In this document: piece by piece, positions 12,481 to 63,708 of the stretch
How positions within the stretch are numbered: the stretch's first letter is position 1
How the letters are laid out: every line of letters starts with the position of its first letter
Assembly (NCBI GenBank): GCA_964561965.1
Contig: CAZLQY010000002.1
Coordinates: 50,421-114,420 of the forward strand
Direction of reading: 5' to 3'
DNA: 64,000 nt
DNA from: an uncultured Verrucomicrobiales bacterium
GTDB taxonomy: Bacteria; Verrucomicrobiota; Verrucomicrobiia; Verrucomicrobiales; Akkermansiaceae
Made by a program: the position numbers and the translations under genes
The notes under the pieces: model-generated
What the model was told of the DNA's origin: nothing
What the model saw: only the letters and a program-made list of their open reading frames with translations
The model's database searches: none

Positions 12481-12915
12481 ATGGAGCAAGTCGACAAAGT
12501 CTACAATCACTTACTTACTCGTTGCAAAGAGCTAGGCCTCCGTCGCACGAAAGCCTTGGAAGCGCTATTGACCGTTTTAACACGTGAAAATAGACCAATG
12601 ACACTCGCAGAGTTAGCAGAAAATACGGAATTAGCTACTTCCTGTGATAAAGCCACCGTATTTCGCCTTATTGGCCGCTTAACGAATAAAGGGCTCGTAC
12701 GTAGACTAGGCTTACATGAAAGGGCCGCATACTTCACATTGCTTCTCCCAGGGCGCCATCAAGATTTTCTAATCTGCAGCTCTTGTGGTGATATTAAAGC
12801 CGTCAAAGCACCTTGCCCTGTCCATCAACTCGAGCAGAAAATTGCTAAAGATACTGGCTATAGTGGCCTCTACCATGAGCTGGAATTTTTTGGTACTTGC
12901 CCCAACTGCCAATAA
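12481..12915 (+). CDS. Fur-family transcriptional regulator (Fur/Zur/PerR type)
   Basis: 144 aa. Winged-helix ATVFRLIGRLTNKGLV. Two CxxC pairs (CSSCGD and CPNCQ) for structural Zn. Confidence 0.85.
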   Translation: MEQVDKVYNHLLTRCKELGLRRTKALEALLTVLTRENRPMTLAELAENTELATSCDKATVFRLIGRLTNKGLVRRLGLHERAAYFTLLLPGRHQDFLICSSCGDIKAVKAPCPVHQLEQKIAKDTGYSGLYHELEFFGTCPNCQ

Positions 12916-13168
12916 GTCACCTACCGACAGCAAGTAGAGCTTCATCTTCCCCCAACAAAAACGCAGCTTTGTCTGGTTGTTTTAATTATTAACATTAGTT
13001 AAAAGTCTACGGAGACTCTCTTTATTTTTAAAAATACACACTCTCCACGCCATCCTCCTCCACAAATATGATCCGTTTATTATAATATTTCACATCACCC
13101 ACCTCAATAGACATAAAACTTCGCTTCACCTCTTCTCAAAAAGATTCCTCTAGCTAGAGTATCTGGCC

Positions 13169-14590
13169 GTGAGCTTAAGCCAGCACATATTTGACGACAC
13201 CCCAGCCCGATTCTTTGCCGTATTAACATGGCGCTATGGTCGATTGTATATCGATGCGTTAGACAGAATTGAAGAAATACAACGCCACCGTCATGGCGTA
13301 GGTTTAACAAGAGCCGAACTAATCGAAGTCTGTCAGGACATCATTAATACCAGTAATCCTGACACCACGGAAGCAGCAGACGATGAGAAAAATCTGACTG
13401 CCCCAGAAATGCTCCGTCAAATGCTCCATTGTCATTGGCTGGAAGCTCCGAAACGTAGTGATTACCAGCGAGTCTACTATCTAGACAACCGAGCAGAGCT
13501 ACTCCTGGAAAGTCTCCGCCGTATGGCCCATCCTGAGCAAGTAACCTTTACAGATAAACTCCATCTAGTTTGTTCACGCCTCATGGATCCAAACGCGTTT
13601 ACGGATCACCCACTCTCAGATATAGAATCTTGTAATGACAATCTGCGCTACGGCTTACAAGAACTGCGTTCCCTACAACAAGGAATGGCCAGGTTAACCC
13701 AACGCCAACTTCGCTCTGATTCACTCAAAGAGAACCTCCAAGTACTCTATGATGACTTTTCAGAAAACATAGGTCAACGCTGCTACAAACAACTGATTTC
13801 ACTAAATCTACCCGTCCGGCTGCCACTCATTAAAGAGCAACTCACCAATATCGAACAAAACCCCGTAGTGATCGCAAAAATGGAAGTTGCTCTCCAAAAG
13901 CGGCGCCCTGAACTCACAGAGAATGAAATCGCAGCTCGTGTCTCAAACCTCATTCGAGATGCGATCTCCATGCTAGAGAGCGTAGAGCCTCAGAGTGAGG
14001 CTGTTGACCGGAAAGCGGCCGACTTTGCTCGCCGTTCCTTTGCTCGATTTCGCTACCTTCAAGAAGTATCTAGTGGTCGCCGCTCCGAGATGCGCTCTGT
14101 TTTTGAGAAAATCAACAACCACTACTCCGGTTGTAAAATGGCCCATTTACCAGAACAATTACAATTGCCTGCTCTAAAAGTCCCCTCCGTCGGCCTCCTC
14201 TCAGGTCTCGAAAGCCTTTTCGCCCCCAGAACACAGCGTAAGAAATACGAACGCCAATCACTCGCAGACCTCTACGATGAGGATATCCTAGAAGATCACG
14301 ATCACGCCGTCGTTGAGATGCAAGAGAACATCAACAGCTCACTAAACACTGTTCGAGCCAATCGATTCTACCAAACACTTTGTGTCCCTTCTCAAGGCCT
14401 CAACTCAGACTCCATCGTTACAGACTCTGAAGAATGGTTACTAGAACTCGCCGGCCTGCTATTACACGGAGACACATCCGAAAGTGAATACACTATTTCT
14501 TCCCCCAGAGAAACTTTCCAAGAACCTACGCAAAGTGAGAAAGACGGATACCTCATCGACCAATTCACTATTCACCCCAACCAACCATAA
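13169..14590 (+). CDS. jetA: JetA/MksF-like kleisin-type subunit of a Wadjet/Mks SMC complex (DUF3375-like)
   Basis: 473-aa helical protein, GTG start. First gene of a tight three-gene operon ending in an SMC-type ATPase. Size and position match JetA. No motif-level proof is possible by eye. Confidence 0.65.
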   Translation: MSLSQHIFDDTPARFFAVLTWRYGRLYIDALDRIEEIQRHRHGVGLTRAELIEVCQDIINTSNPDTTEAADDEKNLTAPEMLRQMLHCHWLEAPKRSDYQRVYYLDNRAELLLESLRRMAHPEQVTFTDKLHLVCSRLMDPNAFTDHPLSDIESCNDNLRYGLQELRSLQQGMARLTQRQLRSDSLKENLQVLYDDFSENIGQRCYKQLISLNLPVRLPLIKEQLTNIEQNPVVIAKMEVALQKRRPELTENEIAARVSNLIRDAISMLESVEPQSEAVDRKAADFARRSFARFRYLQEVSSGRRSEMRSVFEKINNHYSGCKMAHLPEQLQLPALKVPSVGLLSGLESLFAPRTQRKKYERQSLADLYDEDILEDHDHAVVEMQENINSSLNTVRANRFYQTLCVPSQGLNSDSIVTDSEEWLLELAGLLLHGDTSESEYTISSPRETFQEPTQSEKDGYLIDQFTIHPNQP

Positions 14591-14602
14591 CCTTTAATCT
14601 CT

Positions 14603-15337
14603 ATGGAAGCGTCAGCTATCGCACCATCAGGCCTCATCAATCAAACATTGAACCAACGTGACAAGCAAATGCTTCGTGACGTCTCTCATCGTCTATTAGC
14701 TCATGGTTCACTCATGCGCCGCAGATCTTCAGAGAAAAACCTCTACGATTGGGCCAATGAACACCAAGAGTGGCTAGAAGAATGGGCCAGCTTATTAGGT
14801 CTAAAAATCATCATTCAGCGAGATGAAAGAATGGTCATGGCCATTCCAGAGTTCTCCAGTATGACAAGGCGTTTACGCCGCGACGAAACCCTTCTCGCCC
14901 TAGCCCTCTGGTATGACTACGATATAGAAGTAAGAGAGCATGGAGCGCATGATGTCTTCTTTTCCATTAGTGAATTCAACGAAGCGCTCAATAGTAAATT
15001 CCCCTCCATACAAGCGATCTCCGCATCTAGGCTAAAAGAAATCCTACGTAGCTTTTCTCGTTTCAATCTCGTTGAAATTGACTGGCAAGAAGAATTTTCT
15101 GATAGCATCATTCAAATTCTTCCCACACTCCGTTTCGCCATTCCATTTCCAGATATTGAAGAATGGTTAAAAGTAGCAGATACCTATACAGAGGAAGAAG
15201 TCACCCTTCAAAACAACGAAAACACCTCAACCGGTTCACCAGAGACTACCATGGAATCGAGCCTATCTGTCGATGATAGCGATGGTATCGACACACCTTC
15301 AGAACAAACGGACCAAATCAATCCCCCCCTATCATAA
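14603..15337 (+). CDS. jetB: JetB/MksE-like KITE-type subunit (DUF4194-like) with an acidic Ser/Thr-rich C-terminal tail
   Basis: 244 aa, 12 nt after jetA. Pattern LYDWANEHQEWLEEWASLLGLKIIIQRDERMVMAI...RRLRRDETLLALALWYDY resembles MukE/MksE/JetB winged-helix proteins. Confidence 0.65.
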   Translation: MEASAIAPSGLINQTLNQRDKQMLRDVSHRLLAHGSLMRRRSSEKNLYDWANEHQEWLEEWASLLGLKIIIQRDERMVMAIPEFSSMTRRLRRDETLLALALWYDYDIEVREHGAHDVFFSISEFNEALNSKFPSIQAISASRLKEILRSFSRFNLVEIDWQEEFSDSIIQILPTLRFAIPFPDIEEWLKVADTYTEEEVTLQNNENTSTGSPETTMESSLSVDDSDGIDTPSEQTDQINPPLS

Positions 15338-15422
15338 CAAAGGACATCCTCCTCATTGCCTCTAAGCCCTTAGTCACAGCCCCCTCCCACTTCATCACCT
15401 TAAATTATTTTTGCCCTAACTT

Positions 15423-18400
15423 ATGCAAATCGAACTCACTCGCATTCATGCAATCAATTGGTTCGGCTATCAAGACGTCTTTGATGTCGCAGGTAACCTC
15501 CTCATCGCAGGCGTCACAGGCTCAGGAAAATCCATCCTCATGGATCTAGTACAACTAGTGCTCATCGGTGACCAAAAATCCAAATATAACCAATCAGCGA
15601 CAGGCAAAGCCTCCTCAAGAACCTTAAAATCCTATTGCCTAGGTGACACCAAAGATGAAATCGAAGGCGTTGCCCAATATATGCGTAATGAAGGAGCGAC
15701 TACCTACGCCGCTCTAGAGTTCACCAGACCAGATGGGAATATTGAAACTTGGGGACTACGTGTCGAATTTGATAGTGCAGCACAAAATCAAGCATCGAAG
15801 CGCCATGGATTCTTCATTAATGGCCGCATGAATAAAGAAGACTGGATTGATGGTTTTGACTATCCACTAGATTGGGCCGTCTTCCGTGAAATGGTTCACG
15901 ACGGAGGAGGGAAAGTCTTTGACACCATGGACGGTTACCGCCGTGAAATGTCCTTAGTCAAACACCTTAATTTTGACAGAGAAACACTCGACTACCTTCT
16001 CCCCGCAGCCATGTCTTTCACCTTTTTAGACAACTTCAATAAATTCTGCAAAAACTACGTTCTACCACCAGATCAAGTTCATATCCAAGAAGTCAGAGAC
16101 TCCTATCATGCTTTCTTAAGCTTGCGCCGAGAACTCAGCTCCATGAAGCACCAGCTCACACTGTTAGACCAAATCCACACAAACTACACCTCACACAAAC
16201 AGGCACTAAATGACCGCAACATCTTTGCAGATATAGGGCGAGACATGAAAGTAGAAGAGCTCCGAGAAACCGTGGACGAGCTTCTTCATGAAATCAAAGA
16301 ACTCGAAGAAAAAGCGAAGCTCCAAGGAGATGAAGAAACAACGCTCGAAAACACTCTAGCAACCGGGCGCTCCCGCCGCGACTTATTACGTGATGCACTC
16401 AATGAAACAGAAGAAGGTCGCCTCTTCCTACACATTCGCGAAGACAACCGCAATTTAGTCAACAAACTACAGCACCTCCGCGAAGCAACACAATCGATAG
16501 AAGAAGCCCGCCGTAAACGCTGCCAAGCAGTAAGAAGCTGGATGGAAACAACGATCCAAACTCGCATCAAAATCCCCGCAATCCAGGTTTCTAAGCTAAA
16601 AAAAGCTCTCAACGACATCGAACAGTGCGACCTAACGAACATAACAAATATAACAAGTCTACTAGAAAAACTAGCAGAAGCTGTTCGGGAATTTCATACC
16701 GCTGCTAAAGAGGCAGAAAAACCACTCCGCGATGAAGTAGAGAAAAAAGTAAGAGCCATCCGCAACCTAACATCACGGCTGGAATCTCTCGATAACGGGC
16801 GCCTTAATCACCGCTCTGCACTACTAGATTCTATCAACTCCACACTCCCCAGGCGCTCCAATGGAGAACCTGCAGCCTACGCCCTACGTGAACTTTGTGA
16901 AGTCACAGATGAACGCTGGCGCCCAGCTCTAGAAACATCCTTTTCCCGTAAATTTGCAGTCGTTGTCGACCCAGGCAATTATAAACATGCAGAAACAATT
17001 TATCGTGAAATGAAAGGGGCTGCACCTGGAGAATCATTAATCAACCCAGAGCAAGCCCTAGAAATACGAGCCACTCGCCTCAAAGGCTCTTTAGCAGAAC
17101 ACCTAGAGTGCGAAAGCCCTGTCGCACAAGCCATTGTCAACCACCTCTTTGGTCGCATCATCTGCGTCGAGAAAGCAGCAGACCTCACGAAACATGATGC
17201 CGCTATCCTACCAGATGGATTCTCATATCGTAGACCCTTCGCAGAACGCCGCGCACACTATGATAATATTCCCTGCATCGGAGGCAAAGGGCTAGAACAA
17301 CAAAAAATTCAGTTAGAAAAAGATCGCCAGATCATCCGTAAAGAACTGGATCAACTCATGCCCACCGCACAGCTGCTAGAACAAGCAGACGCCACATATA
17401 GAAGAGAGAAACTAGATAACCCCAGCCTAGGGCCAAAGCTAATCAACCTTCATCAACTCGAGGACTACGAAACTAGGCTACAAGAGAACATTGAACGACT
17501 CAAAGCCATAGAAGGCTCTGACTTCGAAGCCAAAGAAGCGGAACTACGCGATTTAGACCACGAGCTCACCTCGATCGAAACAAAACTAAAATCCCTCAGA
17601 AAAAGCGAAATTAAAGTAGAACTAGGCCGTATCCAAGGTCAACTTCTTGACTCTGAGGAACAGCTGGAGCGAGCAGAAGAAGAACTCAGCCGCTACAGAG
17701 CAGAAGGGCCAAACATAGACGCTCATAGTCAACGCCGTGAAGAACTCGTACAGAGAATCATCACAGAATTCCCAGCCATAGACATCGCCGTCTCACAAGC
17801 TGTACGCCTAGAACGAGTCTCCGCAGAACGAGCCATAACCTCTTGGGCAAGTGTCGTAGACGGAAGAAAAGAACTCTCACGAGAATTCCCCATCTACAAC
17901 GAATTCTCACCAGAAGAAGAAGACAATTCCATCTGGGAAGAACGCCTAAAACGCATCGAATCCAGTGAGATACCTGCCTATGAAAAGAAAGCACAAAGAG
18001 AAGAAACAAATTGGCAAGAAATCTTCCGCAAACAAGTTCTGATCAAACTTCGTAGTGCACTGATGAAAGTAGACCTCACCCTCAAAACCCTCAATAAACA
18101 ACTTAAAAAACCCATAGGGCATCATCTCTATCAAATCCGCAAACGATCAAACCCAGACTATAAGATCTATCAAAAACTCATTGATAACAGCATGGTCGAT
18201 GAAGAGGATAGCCTATTCTTTGATAGCGTGAATGAAGAGAGTAAAACTGAAATCGAAAGAATATTCACAGCCCTCGTAGAAGACCCTAACAACGCTGAAG
18301 CTCTCAACTTCCTAGACTACCGAAACTACTATGATTACGACATGTCCGTCATGGATACCCGGGACTCAGATGCACGTGAAACAAGTGTCGACAGACAAAG

Positions 18401-18770
18401 TGGAAAGTTCTCTGGAGGAGAAAGTCAAAGCCCCTACTTTATCGCCATCCTAGCCTGTTATCTCAGAGCATATCATCGCTATGATCAACGTGATAATGAA
18501 CCAAGCATCGGAATCGTCCCCATTGATGAAGCCTTTTCAAAACTATCAGGAGAGCGTATCCGCGACTGTATCGAAGCTCTCAAATCTCTAGGCCTTCAAG
18601 GAGTCTTCTCCATGTCCTCAGGTAATATCCCGTATGCTATGGACCTCTGTGATCAAACCATGGTCGTCTCTAAAAAAGAAATTAAAAAAGACAACCGCAC
18701 ATCCATCCGTAACATCGCAGTCTCTCTCACCAGAGAAGAAGCCATTAACAGGCTCGTTGGAGCCTCCTAA
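15423..18770 (+). CDS. jetC: JetC/MksB-like SMC-family ABC ATPase
   Basis: 1115 aa. N-terminal Walker A GVTGSGKS (nt 15510-15533). More than 900 aa of E/K/R/L-rich coiled-coil-like sequence. C-terminal FSGGESQ signature (SGGES, 18411-18425) and Walker B IVPIDEAF (D-E at 18525-18530). Confidence 0.85.
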   Translation: MQIELTRIHAINWFGYQDVFDVAGNLLIAGVTGSGKSILMDLVQLVLIGDQKSKYNQSATGKASSRTLKSYCLGDTKDEIEGVAQYMRNEGATTYAALEFTRPDGNIETWGLRVEFDSAAQNQASKRHGFFINGRMNKEDWIDGFDYPLDWAVFREMVHDGGGKVFDTMDGYRREMSLVKHLNFDRETLDYLLPAAMSFTFLDNFNKFCKNYVLPPDQVHIQEVRDSYHAFLSLRRELSSMKHQLTLLDQIHTNYTSHKQALNDRNIFADIGRDMKVEELRETVDELLHEIKELEEKAKLQGDEETTLENTLATGRSRRDLLRDALNETEEGRLFLHIREDNRNLVNKLQHLREATQSIEEARRKRCQAVRSWMETTIQTRIKIPAIQVSKLKKALNDIEQCDLTNITNITSLLEKLAEAVREFHTAAKEAEKPLRDEVEKKVRAIRNLTSRLESLDNGRLNHRSALLDSINSTLPRRSNGEPAAYALRELCEVTDERWRPALETSFSRKFAVVVDPGNYKHAETIYREMKGAAPGESLINPEQALEIRATRLKGSLAEHLECESPVAQAIVNHLFGRIICVEKAADLTKHDAAILPDGFSYRRPFAERRAHYDNIPCIGGKGLEQQKIQLEKDRQIIRKELDQLMPTAQLLEQADATYRREKLDNPSLGPKLINLHQLEDYETRLQENIERLKAIEGSDFEAKEAELRDLDHELTSIETKLKSLRKSEIKVELGRIQGQLLDSEEQLERAEEELSRYRAEGPNIDAHSQRREELVQRIITEFPAIDIAVSQAVRLERVSAERAITSWASVVDGRKELSREFPIYNEFSPEEEDNSIWEERLKRIESSEIPAYEKKAQREETNWQEIFRKQVLIKLRSALMKVDLTLKTLNKQLKKPIGHHLYQIRKRSNPDYKIYQKLIDNSMVDEEDSLFFDSVNEESKTEIERIFTALVEDPNNAEALNFLDYRNYYDYDMSVMDTRDSDARETSVDRQSGKFSGGESQSPYFIAILACYLRAYHRYDQRDNEPSIGIVPIDEAFSKLSGERIRDCIEALKSLGLQGVFSMSSGNIPYAMDLCDQTMVVSKKEIKKDNRTSIRNIAVSLTREEAINRLVGAS

Positions 18771-18875
18771 GCTACATAGCCCCACTAAAAAGCCAGGCCA
18801 GTAACACTAAGATGAACCACGATACGGACAACCACAATACGGCCCCCCCCTCCAAGCTCCAATCATTCGCCGCAC

Positions 18876-20006
18876 CTACTCTTTCGTAGGTAACTTTGGA
18901 GGGTTCTTCTCTATAAATGCCACGACTTCTTCAACACTATCAGTACAACTCATAGACTCGGAAAACTCACGACCTTCTGCCAGTTGTTGTAAACAAGGGA
19001 AAATCATCGTTTCTGAAGTATAGCGCTCTTTGCCAAGGAATACCATTGGAGAAATGTAATCAAATGTTACATAATGGTTCTGAGTCGCATCCATAAATAC
19101 CTCTTGAGTCGTCCCCGCACTACCAGGAGCAAAAACAACTCCATGAGAAGCGATCGCTAACAGACCATCTTCTCGCAAACTATTCGAAAAATATTTTGCG
19201 ATTCTTACTGAAAATAAATTAGTCGGCTCATGCCCATAAAACCATGTCGGCACAGCTAAACTAGAGTGCCCGTTTGGGTGCAGATTTAAGACCTTCTGAG
19301 CCACCTCCATATAACCAGAATCTTTATAGGTAGGAGCTTGGGACAATAGAGTAAACACAGCATCAAGCTCCTCATCTGATCCGTCTGCCAGCCAAGCACC
19401 CATATTGGCAGCTTCCATGATTCCTGGGCCACCACCAGAAGCAATATAAAAACCTTTCCTAGTAAGATCACGTGCTAGACGGACTACCTTTTTAAAATAA
19501 GGATCCGTCCGTGATGTACCGTGCCCTCCCATAATACCAACTACGCGCTTCCTCCCATCATTTTCCACCCTACCTTCTAATAAGTCCTGCAAAGCATCAT
19601 CAATAGCGTGATCATGTAAACGCTGCCCTAATGCCTCAAGAACATCTGGTTTATTTCTACCTGAATCGACAAAATGATCATAAATCATCTTATCGACACT
19701 TTGATCGTCCCCAGGGCTCCAGCCCTCCATTAATTCCGCACGTGAATACAGCCTAGATCGATAAGGGTTATAAGGTAATCCCTGAATACGAGGCATAACC
19801 AGCGCACCCTTATTCATTAAAAAATCGATACCAACACTATCTGGGAAATGGCAGCCAAGAAATGCGGCTCCTTCACAATTCATAGAATTCCAGTCGATTT
19901 CAAAATTACGAAAATCCACCCCCTGTACAACAGCATGATTAAGATGAGATCCTTGACGCATCAGCGCCGGAATCGAATCAATTTCTCGAGTAACAGACTT
20001 TTTCAT
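18876..20006 (-). CDS. LOG/TIGR00730-family (PpnN-like) nucleotide 5'-monophosphate nucleosidase with an extra N-terminal domain
   Basis: GIMGGHG, ASGGGPGIMEAANMGA and APGSAGTTQEVF (PGGxGTxxE-type) motifs in the C-terminal two thirds. The N-terminal ~150 aa include a pentapeptide-repeat-like stretch, AVVQGVDFRNFEIDWNSMNCEGAAFLGCHF. Confidence 0.75.
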   Translation of the reverse strand: MKKSVTREIDSIPALMRQGSHLNHAVVQGVDFRNFEIDWNSMNCEGAAFLGCHFPDSVGIDFLMNKGALVMPRIQGLPYNPYRSRLYSRAELMEGWSPGDDQSVDKMIYDHFVDSGRNKPDVLEALGQRLHDHAIDDALQDLLEGRVENDGRKRVVGIMGGHGTSRTDPYFKKVVRLARDLTRKGFYIASGGGPGIMEAANMGAWLADGSDEELDAVFTLLSQAPTYKDSGYMEVAQKVLNLHPNGHSSLAVPTWFYGHEPTNLFSVRIAKYFSNSLREDGLLAIASHGVVFAPGSAGTTQEVFMDATQNHYVTFDYISPMVFLGKERYTSETMIFPCLQQLAEGREFSESMSCTDSVEEVVAFIEKNPPKLPTKE

Positions 20007-20464: not shown

Positions 20465-21271
20465 TTAAATATGGCGCCCTCTACGTCTATGTAAAAGAGG
20501 AATAAATCCAAATAAGCCAAGTAGAACTGAACTAGCCTCAGGTACGGCAATTAATGCAAATCCAGATAATGTCGGTTCCCCTAATGCAGCAGATGCACTC
20601 AAGGTGATCGCATTCGCAGCATCAGCAGTAAGTCCAGTAAAGACAGTAAAGTTTTGACCTAATACATAGGAATCAATCGGAGTTGGAGTCGTTGCCGTCG
20701 CACCAGAGAAAGCCACTGTATTCGTAACACCACCAACGGTATAACTCACATTAGAGCTAGCATTATCCCCAAATTGTATTCCACCATAAACATATAAATC
20801 ATAAGTTAATGTTGCATCCAAATTTGTAATATTTAAATCCCAAACCCGTAATGATTGGTCCCCATTATTTTGAAACGCAAAGTCATACAGCAAATTTGTG
20901 ATTCCACCTGTTCCACCGGGAACTGTGGCGGGCGTTGCTTGATTTTGCCGGCGAAAAGCACCAAGCCCACCATTTGGAGATGTGATTGTATAGCTAACGG
21001 TTGTCGCTGTACCGTCAGATTGTGTCAAATTCGTACCTGTCAGCCCTGAATTATTCCAAATAGCAGTAGCTCCTGCAGGATCAGCATGGGCAGCACTCTC
21101 CCCAGTTGCAGAATCCCTAGGTCCTCCATTTAGCTGTATATCGACATTAATTACACTTGCGCTTATAGAACCCACTGTTAGTGTATAAAAGAGGGACATT
21201 GATAGTTTTTTTATACGTTGCATGCATATAGAAATAACATTTACAGCATTAGATACAATATTTTTTTTCAA
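20465..21271 (-). CDS. PEP-CTERM-anchored secreted protein
   Basis: The C-terminus VPEASSVLLGLFGFIPLLHRRRGR has a PEP-like motif, a TM helix and an Arg cluster. The body is Thr/Gly/Asn-rich. The true start may be an internal Met (MQRIKK or MSLFYTL). Confidence 0.75.
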   Translation of the reverse strand: MKKNIVSNAVNVISICMQRIKKLSMSLFYTLTVGSISASVINVDIQLNGGPRDSATGESAAHADPAGATAIWNNSGLTGTNLTQSDGTATTVSYTITSPNGGLGAFRRQNQATPATVPGGTGGITNLLYDFAFQNNGDQSLRVWDLNITNLDATLTYDLYVYGGIQFGDNASSNVSYTVGGVTNTVAFSGATATTPTPIDSYVLGQNFTVFTGLTADAANAITLSASAALGEPTLSGFALIAVPEASSVLLGLFGFIPLLHRRRGRHI

Positions 21272-62832: not shown

Positions 62833-63708
62833 CTAACCCTGAATCATTTTTACGGGAGGTTTCGCCGTTCTAGGGCCATGCAATCTTTTTGGAGGTGGTG
62901 GCATATGCTGAAGAGCCTCATCAAGGCTTTGATATCGATGTTGAGGGTCCGGCATTATGAATCGTTTATGCCACTGGAGAAAATCTTCTGGGAGATCAGA
63001 GCGGTAACCAGAGAGAGGTGGAATTTCACCCACTTTATGCTTTGCATAAGCAGTTGGTAAATCAAGCTCACTAAGAGGATGCCCCCCTGCCAACAACCAA
63101 TAGCTTAAATGACCTAATAGATAAATGGTCGATACAGAACCTTTTGCATGACCTTCATAAAGTTCTGGCGCGATGAGTGCAGGATCTAATGAGTGCGTAT
63201 GTTTCACAGTTTTACCTTCCAATAAGGGTATAAGCTGACTGTGCCCAAGATCCGTCACAATATGATTATACCCACCAGTGGGCTTTACTTGTGCTGTCAC
63301 AGAATTTGCACTCATAGCATAAAAATAGAATCCCTGTGACATCACATCATTCAATGTCATTAAGAGCTGCCTAAGAAGCTGATAAGCATGGATGAGGGAA
63401 ATACCTCTGGGGTCTTCAGAAAGAAAATCTGAGGCACTTTTACCAGAAAGAATAGGGCTTACGACATACGGCCCATGATTGTCATCAATCCCAGCATCTA
63501 TAATCGATAATACACCTGTATGGTTAATGCGAGAAAGCTCTCCTATGAGTTGAAAAAATTTATCGGAATAGAAGGCTTTATCCACCCCTTTTGAGACATT
63601 AAAGCAACGAAGGGCTACTTTCCTTTCGAGCATCTTATCGAGTGCTTCATAGACACTTCCAGCACGGCCTGAGCCTAGCCTTTTAATGATTTCATAGCGA
63701 TCCCTCAT
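62833..63708 (-). CDS. Ser/Thr protein-kinase-fold protein, predicted catalytically inactive (pseudokinase)
   Basis: Gly-loop LGSGRAGSVY, VALR in place of VAIK (Arg34 = CGT at 63609-63607), no HRD / D-x-K-x-x-N catalytic loop (GFYFYAMSANSV), DLG for DFG. APE and the C-lobe Arg (HRYQSLDEAL) are retained. Confidence 0.7.
   Translation of the reverse strand: MRDRYEIIKRLGSGRAGSVYEALDKMLERKVALRCFNVSKGVDKAFYSDKFFQLIGELSRINHTGVLSIIDAGIDDNHGPYVVSPILSGKSASDFLSEDPRGISLIHAYQLLRQLLMTLNDVMSQGFYFYAMSANSVTAQVKPTGGYNHIVTDLGHSQLIPLLEGKTVKHTHSLDPALIAPELYEGHAKGSVSTIYLLGHLSYWLLAGGHPLSELDLPTAYAKHKVGEIPPLSGYRSDLPEDFLQWHKRFIMPDPQHRYQSLDEALQHMPPPPKRLHGPRTAKPPVKMIQG

Follow-up and report, generated by a model that had tools for sequence, protein, structure and literature searches.

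The MksG nuclease is an optional component of Wadjet-group operons, as surveyed by Bürmann et al. (Cell 2025; PMC7617805), and several complexes of this group without a nuclease are noted both in that survey and in a 2023 review (PMC10586767). The survey catalogued consecutive, co-directional genes for MksF (400–1200 amino acids (aa)), MksE (150–800 aa) and MksB (more than 890 aa, with Walker motifs). The entries of its Data S1 comprise at least 93 FEB operons and 1 BEF operon, against 609 FEBG, 155 GFEB and 11 BEFG operons, which amounts to at least 94 nuclease-less versus 775 nuclease-bearing operons, or approximately 11% nuclease-less among those listed (PMC7617805). One of these entries, from Rubritalea marina DSM 17716 (NZ_KB899251.1), is classed as 'FEB' without MksG, with MksF at 67578–69002, MksE at 66857–67543 and MksB at 63491–66835. 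Here we describe a jetA–jetB–jetC (mksFEB) operon in a stretch of 64,000 nucleotides from an uncultured Verrucomicrobiales bacterium of the Akkermansiaceae (contig CAZLQY010000002.1, positions 50,421 to 114,420), which we call the window. The three co-oriented genes, separated by 12 nt (jetA–jetB) and 85 nt (jetB–jetC), have the sizes and order set out in PMC7617805 for nuclease-less FEB operons (Table 1), and the genes on either side, which encode a Fur-family regulator and a SLOG-like protein, leave the operon without MksG, as that class requires. Judged by its sequence, this type I Wadjet-group operon is intact and looks expressed, with full-length genes and intact ATPase motifs; it lies in the chromosome of a marine, Rubritalea-like verrucomicrobium.

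Consistent with this assignment, the PADLOC JetA1, JetB1 and JetC1 models matched almost the full length of each protein. JetA was matched by Pfam JetA (PF18982, E = 3.1e-33, residues 45–468) and by JetA1 (E = 3.4e-32, residues 6–468, corresponding to model positions 4–463 of 467), and it is 54–86% identical to its orthologues in related loci. JetB was matched by Pfam DUF4194 (E = 2.5e-18) and JetB1 (E = 1.3e-21), and JetC by JetC1 (PDLC00519, E = 1.1e-163, residues 4–1086) together with Pfam AAA_29 and SbcC_Walker_B. The original prediction for this locus, which was made from the DNA letters and a list of open reading frames (ORFs), had proposed a type I jetA–jetB–jetC operon, and these Pfam and PADLOC checks, with E values from 2.5e-18 to 1.1e-163, bear out that identity. 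Sequence similarity to solved complexes was slight: JetC gave weak matches to the JetC structures 8dk1, 8as8 and 9qxt (E = 5e-12, confined to the N-terminal head), whereas searches of PDB sequences with JetA and JetB gave no match. No NCBIfam model matched any of the three proteins.

The catalytic residues of the ATPase are highly conserved. Across 24 JetC orthologues, the Walker A motif does not vary at G30 or T32–S37, and V31 is shared by at least 90%; the signature residues S997–E1000 and the Walker B and D-loop residues V1032–F1038 are invariant as well. Two other SMC families were considered and rejected. Membership of MukBEF was rejected because the Pfam matches of the three proteins include JetA and DUF4194 and no Muk family, and the related MksE model reached only 18 bits, under its cut-off of 27 bits. 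Membership of Smc–ScpAB was rejected because none of the three proteins had a Pfam match to ScpA, ScpB or SMC_N. Among the components that define type I Wadjet, the window operon therefore has JetA, JetB and JetC but no adjacent JetD/MksG Toprim nuclease.

JetD status, descent and selection across the clade

To search for JetD in the window and in the related loci that we fetched (designated L001 onwards), we used a profile built from 82 full-length representatives. These were gathered by searching 1.84 billion representative proteins exhaustively with HMMER, the query being P0121, a homologue of the L014 JetD (426 aa, Pfam JetD_C). The profile was run on all stop-to-stop segments of at least 40 aa in six frames. 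It recovered the real JetDs of L013, L014, L020–L022 and L025 at E values of 1e-90 to 1e-136, but found no match at E ≤ 10 in the 64 kb of the window and none in L001–L012, L015–L019, L023, L024 and L026. Searching the window by tblastn with two JetDs from relatives also gave no match, and Pfam scans of the window neighbours and of the least obvious or unassigned ORFs gave no JetD_C or Toprim-type nuclease. The earlier remark that no ORF of the 64 kb resembles a Toprim protein was therefore upheld, with no JetD found within 45 kb 3′ or 13 kb 5′ of the operon.

We then added 78 metagenomic loci and reran the JetD profile; a locus was counted only if its sequence extended at least 1.3 kb beyond jetC. 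Of the 19 loci whose JetC is at least 56% identical to that of the window, 17 had no jetD, 2 had a displaced jetD, and none had an adjacent jetD or only a fragment of it. By contrast, jetD was adjacent in 44 of the 53 loci with JetC identity of 36–49%, the remainder having no jetD (6), a displaced jetD (2) or only a fragment (1). The contrast between close and distant relatives was pronounced (Fisher p = 3e-9, with loci counted without correction for phylogeny), and the operon without JetD is shared by Rubritalea, Persicirhabdus, Sulfuriroseicoccus and related metagenome-assembled genomes (MAGs). The original prediction had implied that the missing nuclease was novel. By the criterion set in that prediction, the locus is ordinary rather than novel, because its ATPase lies in a clade that is normally without the nuclease; moreover, the catalogued coordinates of the R. 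marina FEB operon are identical to those of locus L017, an orthologue of the window operon. With nuclease-less Wadjet-group operons documented and this orthologue already listed, the window operon is by itself a fairly ordinary one.

Loss of JetD with retention of JetABC is recurrent, because it is seen again outside the close clade. A second JetD-less subclade is present among relatives of 45% identity (L026, L032 and L080), only the last approximately 67 positions of the JetD profile remain beside an intact jetC in L103 (13385–13666), and in L013 (6879–8074) JetD is frameshifted and split over two reading frames, again beside an intact jetC. The only JetD-bearing members of the close clade, L014 and L009/L021, are nested within the neighbour-joining (NJ) tree beside L016 and Sulfuriroseicoccus oceanibius. 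In both (L014, 13672–17054; L021, 900–10596, into which L009 continues), other genes lie between jetC and jetD: the insert in L014 encodes a 651-aa Schlafen AlbA_2/HATPase_c_4 protein, and that in L021 spans 8.4 kb and carries HATPase_c_3, DUF6119, DUF1016/YhcG and other genes. The jetC–jetD junction may thus be an insertion hotspot for defence-like cargo. In L016 (7221–13348), from an uncultured Rubritalea MAG, jetC is 66% identical to that of the window, but upstream of it neither jetA nor jetB is present; in their place are RimK-like and AstE/AspA-like genes of opposite orientation, so that L016 holds either an orphan jetC or a rearrangement.

The closest relative of the window operon is that of L001, a Verrucomicrobiales MAG with an 87% identical JetC and the same nusA–infB–Fur–jetABC–SLOG gene order; beyond this relative, the genes flanking jetABC vary. 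A JGI contig encodes an identical JetC, as do runs labelled 'algae metagenome'. JetC proteins of 56–73% identity come from Rubritalea tangerina, R. profundi, R. spongiae, R. marina, Persicirhabdus sediminis, S. oceanibius and Akkermansiaceae MAGs. In the NJ tree of JetC the Rubritalea species group together with the other genera outside, and the identity of JetC (65–70%) is on a level with or above that of core enzymes of the same loci (NadB 72%, a phosphate acyltransferase-like protein, so labelled from our reading of its translation, 62%, LpxD 57% and PanC 56%). Taken together, this clustering and these identities indicate vertical descent of the operon rather than recent transfer.

The operon is also under strong purifying selection after loss of the nuclease, comparable to that on core genes. 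We estimated the ratio of non-synonymous to synonymous substitution rates (dN/dS) from JetD-less Rubritalea pairs with unsaturated dS (0.8–2.8). The ratio was about 0.02 for jetC, 0.04–0.07 for jetA and 0.04–0.125 for jetB; for comparison, nusA and infB gave 0.012 and 0.023 between the window and L001.

Candidate functions of the JetD-less complex

These findings can be accommodated by a model in which a JetABCD plasmid-restriction system was ancestral and this clade lost jetD on one or more occasions. What remains, presumably a complex of the JetA2B4C4 type, would still load on DNA and extrude loops with ATP but would no longer cleave; this expectation draws on what biochemistry has established for type I JetABC and for MukBEF, dimers of dimers that load and extrude loops with ATP. 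Its retained role would be in organising or segregating the chromosome beside the host's presumed other condensin, as for MksBEF of Pseudomonas aeruginosa, MukBEF being the main condensin of its own hosts. By analogy with P. aeruginosa MksBEF, we therefore consider a nuclease-independent, loop-extruding condensin that acts in chromosome organisation or segregation to be the most likely function, with a probability slightly better than even. We favour a chromosomal role because the operon appears to be inherited vertically, has a host-like composition and is constrained in the manner of core genes. With regard to other condensins, the fetched Rubritalea loci contained three ORFs of more than 1200 aa, none of which is a canonical Smc: two encode beta-propeller/Calx-beta and lectin/GSDH proteins, while the third matches nothing in Pfam.

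Residues through which JetC and JetB contact JetD were also considered. In E. coli, F919 of JetC inserts into the aCAP pocket of JetD (bioRxiv 10.1101/2023.11.03.565488). A conserved LFF motif at residues 931–933 of the window JetC may correspond to F919, although this mapping is by offset alone, the HMMER alignment to 8as8 beginning only at residue 949. The motif is conserved in JetD-bearing and JetD-less lineages alike and so does not discriminate between them. In JetB, an N-terminal 'IFDR' has been described as a JetD-contact motif (PMC10586767). No such motif was recognisable in our alignment of JetB orthologues, and a short hydrophobic patch at the N terminus occurs in loci with and without JetD, which makes it uninformative.

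Several observations weigh against a nuclease-free chromosomal role, which is argued for the whole clade by analogy only. Both nested members still have jetD, at 2.4 kb (L014) and 8.4 kb (L009/L021) 3′ of jetC; therefore, a nuclease-dependent function has been retained at least in these two, and displacement of jetD does occur. In addition, flanking genes differ among genera, leaving the operon without a fixed chromosomal position; the candidate JetD-docking LFF motif is still invariant in JetD-less members, if the offset mapping to F919 is right; and the JetD search of the source genome covers these 64 kb only. The displaced jetD genes, the invariant LFF motif and the 64-kb view of the genome would all fit a complete Wadjet defence system in which JetABC recognises small circular DNA by extruding loops and a JetD encoded elsewhere docks on the complex and cuts that DNA. 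We regard such an arrangement as quite improbable. JetD was absent not only from the window on both sides of the operon but also from 17 related loci, which were covered for up to 10 kb on each side (less on short contigs), and relatives that carry jetD nearly always have it directly adjacent to jetC. A search of 5.8 billion proteins with the clade's JetD returned two metagenomic relatives and no named isolate of the Rubritalea clade, although this search was word-indexed and of limited sensitivity; another word-indexed search with an alignment of nine JetD sequences gave 4 matches, and neither search is sensitive enough for its outcome to be read as absence. The closest JetD representatives in the exhaustive HMMER search, among its ten best clusters, are likewise metagenome proteins, encoded on metagenome contigs, and the conservation of LFF may be purely structural.

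An anti-plasmid or anti-phage activity that does not need the nuclease is also unlikely. JetABC might, like Smc5/6, silence, compact or mis-segregate small circular DNA, or might work with a different, non-Toprim effector. The ancestry of the operon in a defence system agrees with this idea, as does purifying selection strong enough to show that some function has been kept, and the sister loci that carry JetD are rich in defence genes (Mrr, AAA_15/21 and AbiC in L025; DUF6119, DUF1016 and HATPase_c_3 in L021). However, we looked for a substitute effector conserved beside JetD-less operons across genera and found none, which speaks against the 'different effector' that the original prediction had put forward. 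A divergent upstream gene of 340–350 aa is common to four Rubritalea species only, the downstream genes differ in each lineage (GDPD, an enoyl reductase, a TonB receptor, an AraC-type regulator and others), and the SLOG-like convergent gene adjoins the operon only in the window and in L001. Nor did PADLOC match any defence gene among the neighbours of jetABC in the window, and vertical inheritance at the level of the family, core-like constraint and host-like codon usage are unusual for defence genes. It would be least probable of all that the operon is a decaying, functionless remnant left by loss of the nuclease. The fragment and the frameshifted JetD of distant relatives (L103 and L013) and the jetC of L016, which stands without jetA or jetB, are what such decay might look like, but more than 15 species and genera keep all three ORFs intact. 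Uniformly low dN/dS (0.02–0.125) and invariant catalytic motifs show that the operon is not a remnant; the selection analysis effectively refutes this explanation.

The candidate readings offered originally, namely a nuclease-less condensin, an effector in trans and a different effector, remain the right ones, and the condensin is the one that we prefer. A broader version of this chromosomal reading, which we advance tentatively and hold to be somewhat less than an even chance, is that Rubritalea-like Verrucomicrobiales have domesticated the type I Wadjet motor into a nuclease-free chromosomal condensin across the family, independently of MukBEF and of MksBEF in Pseudomonas. If this were true, the JetD-bearing L014 and L009/L021, nested within the clade, would form with their JetD-less relatives a natural before-and-after pair for the change from an immune to a housekeeping SMC motor.

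Operon layout and surroundings in the window

The positions of the genes, motifs and other sites of the operon are collected in Table 1. ORF calls reproduced the three genes, their sizes and the intergenic and neighbour distances given in the original prediction, and translation placed the three ATPase motifs exactly where it had put them.

Table 1. Genes, motifs and sites of the jetABC operon, in window coordinates
Feature	Position	Strand	Remarks
jetA (mksF-like kleisin)	13169..14590	+	GTG start, 473 aa
jetB (mksE-like KITE subunit)	14603..15337	+	244 aa, isoelectric point (pI) 4.6, acidic C-terminal tail
jetC (mksB-like SMC ATPase)	15423..18770	+	1115 aa
Walker A GVTGSGKS	15510..15533	+	position confirmed by translation
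ABC signature motif SGGES	18411..18425	+	position confirmed by translation
Walker B and D-loop IVPIDEAF	18513..18536	+	D1035-E1036 at 18525-18530, by translation
LFF motif, C-terminal head of jetC, residues 931-933	18213..18221	+	possible counterpart of E. coli JetC F919
Promoter-like site TCCACA, 16-nt spacer, TATAAT	13059..13086	+	10/12 match, ~83 nt 5′ of jetA

The promoter-like site, the only plausible one 5′ of jetA, might conceivably serve as the promoter of the operon; in a scan for promoters and terminators, the counts of such sites in the region were no higher than in shuffled sequence, and no terminator was found 3′ of jetC. The description of JetB as acidic agrees with its calculated pI. 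When the C-terminal end of JetB (window 15100–15337) was compared with its orthologues, the acidic tails were longer in the JetD-less L002, L005–L008, L011 and L015, with an LLD[DF]E-like ending, and short in the JetD-bearing L009, L013 and L014. The correlation is imperfect, as the window JetB has no LLD[DF]E-like motif and the tail of the JetD-less S. oceanibius is short.

The operon is embedded among core genes (nusA, infB, rbfA and transketolase), as had been noted from the sequence. The GC content, GC content at third codon positions (GC3) and codon usage of jetABC fall inside the spread of the 51 ORFs of the window, indicating a host-like composition and agreeing with the absence of a compositional shift noted by eye. 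Upstream, a gene at 12481–12915 ends 253 nt 5′ of jetA; it had been taken for a Fur-family regulator, and the Pfam FUR model supports this (E = 7e-12). Downstream, a convergent ORF (18876–20006, minus strand, 376 aa) has its stop 105 nt from that of jetC. The original prediction called this a LOG-family gene. A partial match to SLOG cluster 4 (residues 154–209, E = 1e-9) agrees with this in part, but there was no clear match to the LOG family itself. Compared with the window (18771–20006), L001 (13343–19951) has its jetC separated from the SLOG-like gene by an additional segment of approximately 1.6 kb. This segment contains a 154-aa cpYpsA SLOG-family gene (E = 3e-48) that is not in the window, nor is a type I restriction-modification HsdM gene that lies further downstream in L001.

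Other features of the window were recorded alongside. AT skew reaches 0.32 within 16001–18000, against 0.0–0.2 elsewhere, and is tentatively attributed to the A-rich codons of the JetC coiled coil, which is rich in Glu, Lys and Gln. GC skew is negative over nearly all of positions 1–64000 regardless of gene orientation and nears zero at the far right end, which suggests that the plus strand is the lagging-strand template over this stretch. An ORF at 20465–21271 (minus strand, 268 aa) has no Pfam or PADLOC match, and its GC3 is unusually low (0.25; the mean for the window is 0.41). Towards the right end, at 62833–63708 (minus strand), a 291-aa Ser/Thr protein kinase was matched by many PADLOC PD-T4-6 models (best E = 2e-22); these matches probably reflect generic similarity among kinases rather than a defence gene.

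Comparison with known systems

By itself the window operon is of little consequence, and what it adds is a clade-level picture of a conserved JetD-less state under purifying selection of housekeeping grade. The clade offers close relatives in which JetD is missing or displaced and more distant ones in which it is adjacent, and these can be compared to learn how defence motors of the SMC type acquire new roles, which is the route proposed for the origin of MukBEF and MksBEF. In annotating genomes, loci of this kind should not be counted as complete Wadjet defence systems.

Type I Wadjet JetABCD, known from E. coli GF4-3 and P. aeruginosa PA14 (PDB 8as8, 8bfn and 8dk1–3), shares its three core subunits and their order with the window operon; JetA1, JetB1 and JetC1 are the best profile matches of the window proteins, and relatives with JetC identity of 36–49% are canonical jetABCD operons. 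The window operon differs in having no JetD, which would leave it without plasmid cleavage by the known mechanism, and its sequences are very distant from those of the solved complexes. MukB is much longer than the window JetC, at about 1480 aa. The MukBEF complex of Enterobacteria also belongs to the Wadjet group, has no nuclease and consists of kleisin, KITE and SMC subunits encoded in FEB order (PMC7617805), but the window proteins fall in Pfam JetA and DUF4194; in its hosts, MukBEF replaces Smc–ScpAB according to the literature. P. aeruginosa MksBEF and mycobacterial MksB are likewise Wadjet-group SMC complexes without MksG, and PMC11329512 ascribes chromosome-related roles to the mycobacterial protein. 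These differ from the window operon in representing an independent loss in a different phylum, and a chromosome role has been demonstrated there, whereas here it is proposed by analogy only. The nearest described system is the FEB operon of R. marina (WP_018969544/43/42; NZ_KB899251.1 63491–69002). It belongs to another species, has other flanking genes and has been catalogued only, but its JetC and JetA are 67% and 62% identical to those of the window, its genes stand in the same order, and it too is without JetD.

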